A stretch of DNA of 6,810 nt from a virus. Below, piece after piece: positions 2,916 through 3,413 of this stretch. Within the stretch, counting starts at the first letter, position 1. Each line of letters begins with the position of its first letter. The notes below the pieces were generated by a model. That model did no database searches, was not told where the DNA came from, and was given only the letters and a program-made list of their open reading frames with translations. The DNA is taken from IMG/VR virus record IMGVR_UViG_3300014071_000013, positions 1 to 6,810 of that record; one strand, 5' to 3'. The translations under genes were made by a program, and so were the position numbers.

Positions 2916-3107
2916 TCAGCCGCGCTTTTCGACCTCGGAGCATTGGTGCATTAGCTTTTTCGGCACAATCTCTCCGTTTGCCTCTTTGATTTTGTCAATC
3001 AACAAAGCACGCACCCACTCGCATTTTTCTTTTGTTTCGTATCGATTTAGTTCTAGTGCGTCGCCTGCACCTCCGGCGATCGCGATCCACAGCATCCATT
3101 CTGTCAT
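2916..3107 (-). CDS. Small membrane-anchored hypothetical protein (63 aa), the second gene of the minus-strand module
   Basis: N-terminal hydrophobic segment MTEWMLWIAIAGGAG followed by a charged helical tail (KEKCEWVRALLIDKIKEANGE). AGGA lies 6 nt upstream of the ATG on the minus strand. The segment is visibly lower in GC. No family is recognised. Confidence 0.55.
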   Translation of the reverse strand: MTEWMLWIAIAGGAGDALELNRYETKEKCEWVRALLIDKIKEANGEIVPKKLMHQCSEVEKRG

Positions 3108-3135
3108 TTTCGGTCCTGCGTTCTAGCTCGGGCGG

Positions 3136-3159
3136 GTGGGGGTGCTGTTACACCCCCAC
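3136..3159. other. Perfect 9-bp GC-rich stem-loop (GTGGGGGTG-ctgtta-CACCCCCAC) between the two minus-strand genes
   Basis: Read directly from the sequence. It is followed by only TTT on + and by no U-run on -, so its role (attenuator, RNA stability element, or weak + strand terminator) is uncertain. Confidence 0.6.
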
Positions 3160-3162
3160 TTT

Positions 3163-3180
3163 ACCGAAGACTTCTTCGGT
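3163..3180. other. 7-bp stem-loop ACCGAAG-actt-CTTCGGT abutting the stop codon of the putative repressor gene
   Basis: Read directly from the sequence. It forms a pair with the 3136-3159 hairpin in the 72-nt intercistronic gap. Confidence 0.55.
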
Positions 3181-3389
3181 CACTCGGTCTCGATCACCAC
3201 TTCGCCAGATGCATTGATCTGCACGTAAGGCACTGATTTATCGAGGATTTTGTGTACAAGCTCGCTATCCCGCATCGGCGGCATGCCGCGCTTTACGAGT
3301 AACTTATTGATTTCTATGCATTTTTGCCGGATCGCCTCTTGCTCGGCGTTCGTAAGGCGAATCGTTGCTGGCATTTTCAATTGGTCCAT
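3180..3389 (-). CDS. Small putative transcriptional regulator/repressor, ribbon-helix-helix-like (69 aa from ATG 3389; ATG 3374 and TTG 3404 are alternatives)
   Basis: It is divergently oriented to the replication gene across an operator-rich region, the typical position of inovirus repressors (for example RstR-type). The N-terminus MPATIRLTNAEQEAIRQKCIEINK fits a beta-strand plus helix RHH pattern. The assignment is by pattern and position only. Confidence 0.5.
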   Translation of the reverse strand: MDQLKMPATIRLTNAEQEAIRQKCIEINKLLVKRGMPPMRDSELVHKILDKSVPYVQINASGEVVIETE

Positions 3390-3413
3390 ATTGACACCCG
3401 TCAATCAGCATAC

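Follow-up and report, generated by a model that had tools for sequence, protein, structure and literature searches.

Positions 1 to 6,810 of the IMG/VR virus record IMGVR_UViG_3300014071_000013, hereafter the window, are an essentially complete, circularly permuted filamentous-phage genome of 6810 bases. Beside its Rep gene lie two small minus-strand genes, ORF69 and ORF63, which are separated by two consecutive stem-loops. This locus raises the question of whether the genes and hairpins form one functional unit, and of what the hairpins are for. The original prediction took the genes for a pair, in which a ribbon-helix-helix-like repressor would control a membrane-anchored exclusion or toxin-like protein, and the hairpins for a device that sets their relative expression. 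Every step proposed here has a computational basis, namely sequence comparison and predicted structures. On balance, these favour a different arrangement, in which positions 2916 to 3486 are the leftward immunity arm of the phage and consist of three separable parts: a repressor cassette, an accessory gene, and a hairpin element. From its distribution among related sequences, the hairpin element is probably a replication element linked to Rep. The features in question are as follows.

2916-3107, minus strand: ORF63, 63 amino acids (aa), second gene of the leftward operon
3136-3159, plus strand: hairpin 2, a 9-bp perfect stem (GTGGGGGTG/CACCCCCAC) with the loop CTGTTA, in viral-strand sense
3163-3180, plus strand: hairpin 1, a 7-bp stem (ACCGAAG/CTTCGGT) with a 4-nucleotide (nt) loop, overlapping the ORF69 stop codon
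3180-3389, minus strand: ORF69, 69 aa from its ATG (an upstream TTG start would give 3404)
3390-3486, no strand assigned: repeat-rich divergent control region between ORF69 and Rep
3487-4641, plus strand: Rep, G2P family, identified by domain matches (PF05144 and PF05155)

Both stem-loops are exactly as first described, with nine perfect pairs in one and seven pairs in the other. The region that contains them folds far better than shuffled sequences, with z -5.6 for DNA and z -4.6 (-35.5 kcal/mol) for RNA. A 33-nt exact match to phage 17897 first pointed to hairpin 2, and the pattern TGGGGGTGT(A/T)ACAGCACCCCCAC has exact copies in over 119 viral contigs and 45 Pseudomonadaceae genome stretches. 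Retrieval by an exact pattern could fake invariance, and conservation was therefore re-tested on loci that had been collected by their Rep only. Of these 57 loci, about 56 share an identical hairpin 2, a level above that of any 24-nt window of the Rep gene, and hairpin 2 is the most conserved sequence in the genome. Its invariance spans Rep identities of 45-98% and extends to one locus (L214) that has a deep-branch G2P Rep. A covariance-model search of Rfam 15 returned nothing in the region at E values up to 10, and a literature search for the hairpin sequence found nothing. The two-hairpin element, as well as the ORF69 and ORF63 families, is undescribed in the literature searched.

Hairpin 1 is maintained in another way, its structure being kept while its sequence is free. 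All seven pairs change on both sides, and the number of doubly changed cells is 147, compared with 50 +/- 6 in shuffles (0/500). Covariation reaches 0.32, against at most 0.09 for slid registers, and the same register is found in all loci.

The element as a whole accompanies one subfamily of Rep proteins across distant hosts. In viral-strand sense, its pattern comprises a G-rich arm, (T)CTGTnA, CAC with a C-rich arm, TTT, and a variable hairpin of 6-7 bp. Homologous elements are present in Escherichia coli If1, Alteromonas phiAFP1, Vibrio PE002, Dulem virus 53, toucan80, and Inovirus D_HF32_91, all of which encode a Rep that is 39-46% identical to that of the window. Between genera, the stem of hairpin 2 shows compensatory substitutions. 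The element was found in 10/10 lineages examined that carry this Rep subfamily, representing at least four host genera, and was absent from 4/4 phages with other Reps (NEU2023, Dulem 65, D_HF3_19, and blackswan219-6). The first three of these encode an ORF69-like protein, yet lack the element. The fourth, blackswan219-6, has structural genes that are 87.8% identical in nucleotide sequence to those of the window, together with another Rep and no element.

The surroundings of the element vary. In If1, it falls inside what is annotated as the major intergenic region, and leftward genes are absent from its vicinity. It directly adjoins the 3' end of the leftward regulator in phiAFP1, Vibrio PE002, and Dulem 53; the Dulem 53 copy is placed between two leftward genes, as in the window. 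Among temperate relatives, it always sits where the first or the second leftward gene ends.

In the reading favoured here, the two hairpins are a cis-acting DNA element that accompanies the Rep subfamily and would not have been built for ORF69 and ORF63. The element would belong to the plus-strand origin, the site of nicking and termination by Rep, and would correspond in position to Ig-1 of CTXphi, next to rstR. Hairpin 2 would supply the conserved sequence, for nicking or recognition, and hairpin 1 would be needed only as a structure. This reading is favoured because the element tracks Rep, sits at the Ig-1 position, and is bordered by a mosaic that fits origin-to-origin copying. In CTXphi, RstA nicks the plus strand in Ig-1, adjacent to rstR, and the DNA of tandem arrays is copied from one Ig-1 to the next (PMC8265649). 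The same order is found in the window and in the CTXphi RS region, which XerCD integrates at dif: the attachment (att)/dif site, an origin-like element at the 3' end of a leftward repressor, divergent operators, and a G2P-family Rep. In phage phiLf-UK, the origin consists of adjacent short stem-loops (SL2/SL3), and a third stem-loop serves as packaging signal (bioRxiv 10.1101/2023.12.30.573655). The window resembles phiLf-UK and the Ff phages in having short adjacent stem-loops in viral-strand DNA and a Rep of the same broad family. In the plus-strand origin of the Ff phages (f1/M13), the nick falls in a hairpin loop (hairpin [D]), and by analogy Rep might nick the window phage at hairpin 2.

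The mosaic in question is seen between the window and L032. The two are 99.7% identical over a block that starts exactly at the dif arm (2304) and stops exactly where hairpin 1 ends (3180). Beyond 3180, the repressor is unrelated and Rep is only 88.6% identical. Origin-to-origin copying of tandem prophages would be expected to yield such a mosaic, and tandem arrays are seen. The locus was originally suspected of being a horizontally exchanged module, and this mosaic, together with the joint inheritance of ORF69 and its control region, bears that suspicion out.

A number of observations nevertheless weigh against the origin assignment. The element is likened to CTXphi Ig-1 by position, and RstA is not among the tblastn matches of the window Rep, to which it is not detectably similar. 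The sequence of the element is also unrelated to the Ff and phiLf-UK elements, and a search beside it found no iterated Rep-binding repeats (iterons). Moreover, the sequence of hairpin 1 tracks the class of the neighbouring repressor instead of Rep. Stems of hairpin 1 are shared by just 3% of locus pairs that have Reps at least 93% identical but repressors of different classes. Hairpin 1 was consequently rejected as a Rep-specificity site, since it does not co-vary with Rep as a ‘key binding’ sequence would be expected to, and no Rep-specificity determinant was identified. A comparison of wobble and mismatch pairs, which asks which strand folds, was ambiguous (20 versus 36, with most cases in the outermost pair). 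A near-identical mosaic block was found just once, between the window and L032, and similarity breakpoints also cluster at the start and end of Rep, the end of the cargo gene, and the dif arms. Finally, a packaging signal or minus-strand origin located beside Rep could show the same linkage to it. Taking both sides together, the case for a plus-strand origin specifically is evenly balanced.

If the tracking of Rep arose merely from adjacency to its gene, the element could be some other viral-strand signal, either a packaging signal that is used by the assembly proteins or a minus-strand origin that is used by host RNA polymerase or primase. An adjacent pair of hairpins in an intergenic region, as in the major intergenic region of If1, recalls the minus-strand origin and packaging signal of Ff, and integrative inoviruses of Xanthomonas have documented packaging hairpins of 20-26 nt with stems of 7-8 bp. 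CTG, the trinucleotide at which E. coli DnaG prefers to initiate, is present in the invariant loop, and the mini-elements described below would have to keep such signals too. A packaging signal is difficult to reconcile with blackswan219-6, which shares its coat, pIII-like, pVI-like, and Zot genes with the window and yet has no element. A signal dictated by the host is at odds with NEU2023, which infects Pseudomonas aeruginosa without having the element, and with the retention of the element alongside the Rep subfamily across four host genera. Another cis signal is thus unlikely, though well short of negligible. The hairpins might instead act in the leftward RNA as an attenuator, a processing site, or a 3' stabiliser, and so set the ratio of repressor to ORF63. 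Their location between the two genes, with hairpin 1 over the ORF69 stop codon, would suit such a role, as would the stability of the RNA fold, the constant association with the 3' end of a leftward gene in temperate relatives, and the fact that hairpin 1 travels with the repressor module. Neither strand offers a U-tract, however, and the conservation of hairpin 2, the highest in the genome, goes beyond what a terminator requires, since termination does not depend on an invariant loop and stem. The element is likewise found in other genera, in the intergenic region of If1, and in mini-elements, where no leftward reading frame ends at it. A main role in tuning expression, as first proposed for the hairpins, is therefore distinctly unlikely.

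Nor are the hairpins a dedicated divider of ORF69 and ORF63, because an ORF63-family gene precedes them in about half of its carriers. They may affect read-through into ORF63 as a side effect, but this cannot be the cause of the element's conservation. Other candidate roles were rejected. An intrinsic terminator is excluded by the absence of a T-run after either hairpin on either strand, and a terminator scan calls nothing at 3136-3180. The hairpin is not the phage attachment site (attP), because the dif-like arms are at 2118 and 2304, about 1 kb from it, and prophage 17897 ends in TTCGCATAATGT about 960 nt from its hairpin. Nor is the hairpin a unique recombination junction, as breakpoints cluster at other module borders too. 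It is a frequent one, and ORF63 is inserted directly beside it.

Should the plus-strand origin assignment be true, it would provide the missing cis element for building replicons and phagemids from this phage group. It would also provide a sequence marker for prophages, tandem arrays, and possible satellites in Pseudomonadaceae. The candidate origin, of about 45 nt, is common to Pseudomonas inoviruses and the classical coliphage If1.

Seven contigs carry two hairpin copies 6.2-8.0 kb apart (L042, L070, L094, L097, L103, L250, and L254). These are tandem prophages or concatemers, and one of them lies in a complete chromosome of Ectopseudomonas mendocina (CP176620.1). Tandem prophages also occur in CTXphi. 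In addition, mini-elements of 1.6-2.2 kb, flanked by dif arms, retain the invariant hairpin in chromosomes of Stutzerimonas and Pseudomonas (L233 4767-6935, L240 5870-7498, L230, and L246). All encode a conserved ‘EKISC’ protein of 111-121 aa, and three encode a protein of 80-100 aa with G2P_X_C only. They have no full Rep, no structural genes, and no gene in the repressor slot, save for a divergent ribbon-helix-helix-like reading frame in L240, where the mini-elements are tandemly repeated. By analogy, they may be satellites comparable to RS1/TLC, which exploit CTXphi. A bolder synthesis would make the element the shared plus-strand origin of the Rep subfamily (in Pseudomonas, Escherichia If1, Alteromonas, Vibrio, and saliva-metagenome inoviruses), the mini-elements its satellites, and ORF63 a new soluble Cys-pair family for exclusion or modulation; taken as a whole, this is doubtful.

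The second part of the question is whether ORF69 and ORF63 belong together. The class of repressor and the identity of the second leftward gene were tabulated across 152 non-redundant contexts. An ORF63-family gene follows 8/39 ORF69-type repressors, 29/79 XRE repressors, and 3/10 and 2/4 of two other small types. The family occurs in about 28% of related phages, where any one of four repressor families may stand in front of it, and 26/39 ORF69-type contexts have no recognised second gene. ORF69 and ORF63 are consequently not a dedicated or co-evolving pair, and the comparison of loci identifies ORF63 as an optional accessory gene. Genes of this family are always the second leftward gene, and either overlap the repressor stop codon ahead of the hairpins or come after the hairpins. 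In L032, an identical ORF63 protein is encoded behind an unrelated XRE repressor.

A toxin-like pairing had been among the original suggestions, and in its explicit form ORF69 would be the antitoxin and autorepressor of a type II toxin–antitoxin-like system, with ORF63 as its small toxin. The order of the genes is compatible with this, as a small ribbon-helix-helix-like DNA-binding protein is followed by a small protein, in a module that is low in GC content and mobile. The pairing is not conserved, however, given that four unrelated repressor families precede ORF63 and that so few ORF69-type contexts contain it. Neither protein matches a toxin, antitoxin, or defence family (Pfam, PHROG function, PADLOC). 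Furthermore, a structured spacer of 72 nt separates the two genes, and the operators are on the Rep promoter and not on a promoter specific to the pair. A toxin–antitoxin system is accordingly highly improbable here.

The slot that ORF63 occupies, which may come after or before the hairpin, holds other cargo in sibling phages (L016-L134). One occupant is a 57-65 aa ‘MRAERD...’ protein with a true transmembrane segment, another a 54-57 aa ‘MGLxDRxWFN’ transmembrane protein, and a third a 78-aa ‘WKIVGKDGVEL’ protein. In Dulem 53, the occupant is a small membrane protein (MKKIVLILSAVVFCCGF...). The second leftward genes of distant phages gave no match to the ORF63 profile. This optional slot for small genes is a likely seat of lysogen-conversion or exclusion functions.

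As for ORF63 itself, we are strongly confident that it is a real accessory protein and, judging from its predicted structure, a soluble one. Both minus-strand reading frames were placed correctly by the original prediction and are conserved in relatives. The ratio of non-synonymous to synonymous substitution rates (dN/dS) of ORF63 is 0.08-0.10 relative to a 63%-identical ortholog, which indicates strong purifying selection. Its putative ribosome-binding site is read from the sequence, and a purine-rich stretch at this position is kept in the spacer alignment across loci.

3114-3117, minus strand: Shine-Dalgarno-like AGGA, 6 nt upstream of the ORF63 ATG

Close homologs of ORF63 form just three clusters among 5.8 billion proteins. 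Iterative profiles recover a wider family, whose members are 55-80 aa long; the fetched loci contain 34 different sequences of it, and searching exhaustively with the profile gave 70 representatives. Within this family, Trp4 and Cys29 are invariant, Leu6 is near-invariant, and a second Cys is located near the C-terminus. Phage 17897 carries a divergent member (721-918) after its hairpin; pairwise BLASTP of ORF63 against the ORF65 of 17897 gives nothing, and their kinship is visible through iterative profiles only. A translated search of ORF63 against GenBank phages gave no match, and no literature was found on DUF7336 or DUF1482.

The AlphaFold model of ORF63 is a compact beta-beta-alpha-beta fold (predicted local distance difference test score, pLDDT, 86; predicted template-modelling score, pTM, 0.71), in which residues 2-10 form the first strand of a three-stranded sheet. 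In BFVD, this fold resembles dozens of small tailed-phage proteins at template-modelling scores of 0.6-0.76, all of them uncharacterised. The N-terminal membrane anchor that had been assigned to ORF63 does not survive this analysis, since only 12 consecutive residues are uncharged, Kyte-Doolittle hydropathy over 19 residues peaks at 0.81, and the model places the segment in a beta-strand. For comparison, the same peak is 2.12 in the ‘MRAERD...’ protein, a true membrane protein from the ORF63 slot of other phages. Across the family, the hydrophobic N-terminal stretch comprises 10-13 residues and has charged residues on both sides.

ORF63 would be co-transcribed behind the repressor, and its likeliest mode of action, in cells that carry the phage or are lysogenic for it, would be to bind a protein of the host or of a phage, for instance in exclusion or host modulation. 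Such a part in exclusion or modulation is a tentative best guess, and any function ascribed to ORF63 is a guess. Telling against it, a Foldseek search of the model against the Protein Data Bank (PDB) found nothing significant, and there is no match to a curated family or defence model (Pfam, PHROG function, PADLOC) and no informative homolog. In addition, the pair of Cys residues would suit an exported or redox protein, yet no signal peptide is recognisable. A more specific proposal is that ORF63 is a membrane-anchored superinfection-exclusion protein similar to PfsE of Pf4, which reportedly blocks type IV pili from the inner membrane and is said to be about half the size of ORF63. ORF63 is a very small protein from the immunity side of an inovirus and has a hydrophobic N-terminus, and the true membrane proteins in the slot of sibling phages would fit an envelope-directed function. 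As with PfsE and other morons, the gene is small, optional, and located on the lysogeny side, in a slot that contains different small genes in each relative. This likeness is judged from description, and ORF63 differs in being predicted to be soluble. Its hydrophobic stretch is short and flanked by charges, its N-terminus is modelled confidently as a strand within a sheet, and its fold matches that of small soluble phage proteins. A PfsE-like anchor, the precedent for which is PMC8764522, is therefore very unlikely, while a soluble exclusion factor stays compatible with these features. As a conserved protein, ORF63 is a reasonable target for a small expression screen.

The remaining part of the immunity arm is ORF69 with its control region. 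It is highly probable from sequence comparison that ORF69 is the immunity repressor. This follows from its position, from a slot that is swapped with helix-turn-helix (HTH) repressors, and from sequence motifs that are exclusive to the ORF69 family. ORF69 is divergent from Rep, with 97 nt between them, and its start is assigned to the ATG at 3389 because most homologs are 69 aa long. These homologs form about 90 clusters, mostly from Pseudomonas genomes or from contigs of about 7 kb. In sibling phages, the slot is filled by HTH_3/XRE proteins of 118-139 aa or by two other small protein types, and in 17897 and 36-2 the gene in this slot is annotated ‘repressor’. The intervening region was described at the outset as rich in operators, with ORF69 facing away from Rep across it, and this account agrees with the repeats listed here.

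3422-3431 and 3472-3481: two copies of the direct repeat ATGTGATTTG
3412-3425, 3439-3446, and 3480-3495: three copies of the palindrome TGCATGCA
3434-3439 (TTGACG) and 3458-3463 (TACATT), spacing 18: Rep promoter-like site, facing Rep

The promoter-like site is flanked on both sides by ATGTGATTTG repeats and GCATGC palindromes. Such operator-like motifs are found only in phages with an ORF69-type repressor. Among non-redundant loci, GCATGC has a mean of 2.9 copies with this repressor type and 0.03-0.06 with the others, and TGTGATTTG has a mean of 1.4 copies, compared with 0-0.06. ORF69 and the control region are inherited as one block in about 54 loci. By this comparison, ORF69 and its operators are an exchangeable cassette, which in sibling phages is replaced by repressors of the XRE type or of other small types, together with different operators. 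ORF69 would be a small dimeric protein, probably of the ribbon-helix-helix type, that binds the ATGTGATTTG repeats and GCATGC palindromes around the -35 and -10 elements of the Rep promoter. Binding to DNA, to which the distribution of motifs points, would turn off replication and fix the specificity of immunity, and the exchangeable cassette would consequently define immunity groups.

A ribbon-helix-helix fold is plausible for ORF69. The AlphaFold model (pLDDT 87) has an extended segment at 7-13, helices at 14-33 and 41-55, and a beta-hairpin at 56-66. The small size, and the order of an N-terminal extended segment followed by two helices, are shared with Arc/CopG/NikA-like regulators, and the strand and first helix of NikA align with the ‘RLT-AEQEAIR-K’ motif of ORF69. 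Sub-threshold matches to PF21983 (NikA-like) occur in 10/46 members of the ORF69 family, with a best E of 0.034, and the family profile matches the NikA structure PDB 2ba3 weakly (E 0.47). On the opposing side, all sequence matches fall below curated thresholds, the window ORF69 itself matches no ribbon-helix-helix family, and Foldseek of the monomer model against the PDB gives nothing significant (best E 0.12). The C-terminal beta-hairpin is also additional to the known regulators. The ribbon-helix-helix-like N-terminus originally proposed, with which the strand-helix-helix order of the model agrees, is thus plausible but weakly supported. Profile-profile comparison of ORF69 with the other small repressor types reaches a probability of 32%, which is merely suggestive. 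ORF69 matches phrog_5642 (E 7e-26), a PHROG family of unknown function. Both proteins belong to uncharacterised families, in keeping with the initial failure to recognise either, and structure prediction, which had been recommended for the two, returned confident models for both and no significant PDB match for either.

In L005 (6792-6929), and also in L009, the ORF69 homolog is cut to 45 aa. The Rep of L005 is shortened to 325 aa, an IS66-family element adjoins the prophage, and JetD/SbcC-like (Wadjet-type) genes are nearby. L005 looks like a decaying prophage that still holds the hairpin and an intact ORF63 ortholog.

Heteroimmune rstR types are known in CTXphi, where rstR/ig-2 sets the specificity of immunity. 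As in the window phage and its siblings, the cassette of repressor and operators is exchangeable between otherwise similar CTXphi phages. ORF69 differs from RstR in being a 69-aa ribbon-helix-helix-like protein, RstR being an HTH protein, and the window has, on the att side of the repressor, ORF63 as an additional accessory gene. The repressor-operator cassette, and the candidate origin beside the repressor, are new examples of arrangements known from CTXphi, and nothing here is outside known kinds of system.

By sequence comparison, the window phage is a CTXphi-style, dif-integrating Pseudomonas inovirus. Its nearest GenBank relatives are phages from bird-cloaca metagenomes and the newly described P. 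aeruginosa inoviruses, Pf 17897 among them, that lack an integrase and measure about 7 kb. These small Pseudomonas inoviruses were recognised only in 2023, and their regulatory side is without functional annotation. The study concerned does not describe the small genes or the hairpin (PMC10675462, Viruses 2023). Pf 17897, Pf 36-2, and WX-Y share the genome architecture of the window, with Reps that are 46-67% identical and the element at the same place. The element is exact in 17897 and WX-Y, while 36-2 has the T-loop variant with the last base changed. None of the three carries ORF69: 17897 has an XRE-type repressor, and 36-2 and WX-Y have a 63-aa ‘YRVRD’ repressor. The Rep homolog in Pseudomonas phage WX-Y is annotated RstA1. 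Coat genes are also encoded in the window, and its further features include the following.

916-2109: Zot/pI-like assembly protein
2118-2129 and 2304-2315, plus strand: two copies of the dif-like XerC arm TTCGCATAATGG
2738-2753, minus strand: weak terminator-like site 3' of ORF63, from a consensus scan whose count is not above that in shuffles
5185-5490: single-stranded DNA-binding protein

Integration at dif is assigned because the Pseudomonas dif site has TTCGCATAATGT as its XerC arm and this sequence flanks prophage 17897, because the window has copies of TTCGCATAATGG, and because nearly all relatives have such arms. In nearly all related loci, a dif-like arm is found 0.5-1.3 kb upstream of the hairpin, and the order is dif arm, hairpin, repressor, and Rep. 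The two direct TTCGCATAATGG copies of the window are 186 nt apart and enclose most of ORF76 (2069-2299). In many relatives, the two arms are instead inverted, with about 80-100 nt between them, in the folded attP arrangement of the CTXphi type. The direct duplication may be a recombination scar or an inserted cassette.

The low GC content that drew attention to the locus is real. It is 0.490 in ORF63, 0.495 in ORF69, and 0.454 in the intergenic region between ORF69 and Rep, compared with 0.573 for the genome. The 72-nt spacer between the two genes has a GC content of 0.597. Positions 5491-6300 are also lowish in GC content (0.522).

Adjoining ORF63 on its other side, positions 2617-2915 are a non-coding stretch of about 300 nt with the highest GC content of the genome (0.659), and its identity across about 76 related loci is approximately 80-85%. 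In phages without a cargo gene, its counterpart adjoins the hairpins directly, which creates one long intergenic region. This stretch may hold the remaining cis signals, namely the packaging signal and minus-strand origin, and the terminator-like site within it is a possible end of the leftward transcript.

ORF82 (2368-2616, plus strand; phrog_13909, E 2e-24) is a coiled-coil-like protein encoded just inside the att side, and the genes at the corresponding position in 17897 and 36-2 carry the annotation ‘DNA-binding protein’. In view of its location beside the dif arms, ORF82 might act in integration or modulate XerCD. Lastly, tandem repeats of 9, 18, and 30 nt (GGCGATGGT and variants) cross the ends of the window, from 6715-6810 on into 2-138. 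They fit a genome that is circularly permuted, and also a Gly/Asp-rich linker within the pIII-like adsorption protein.

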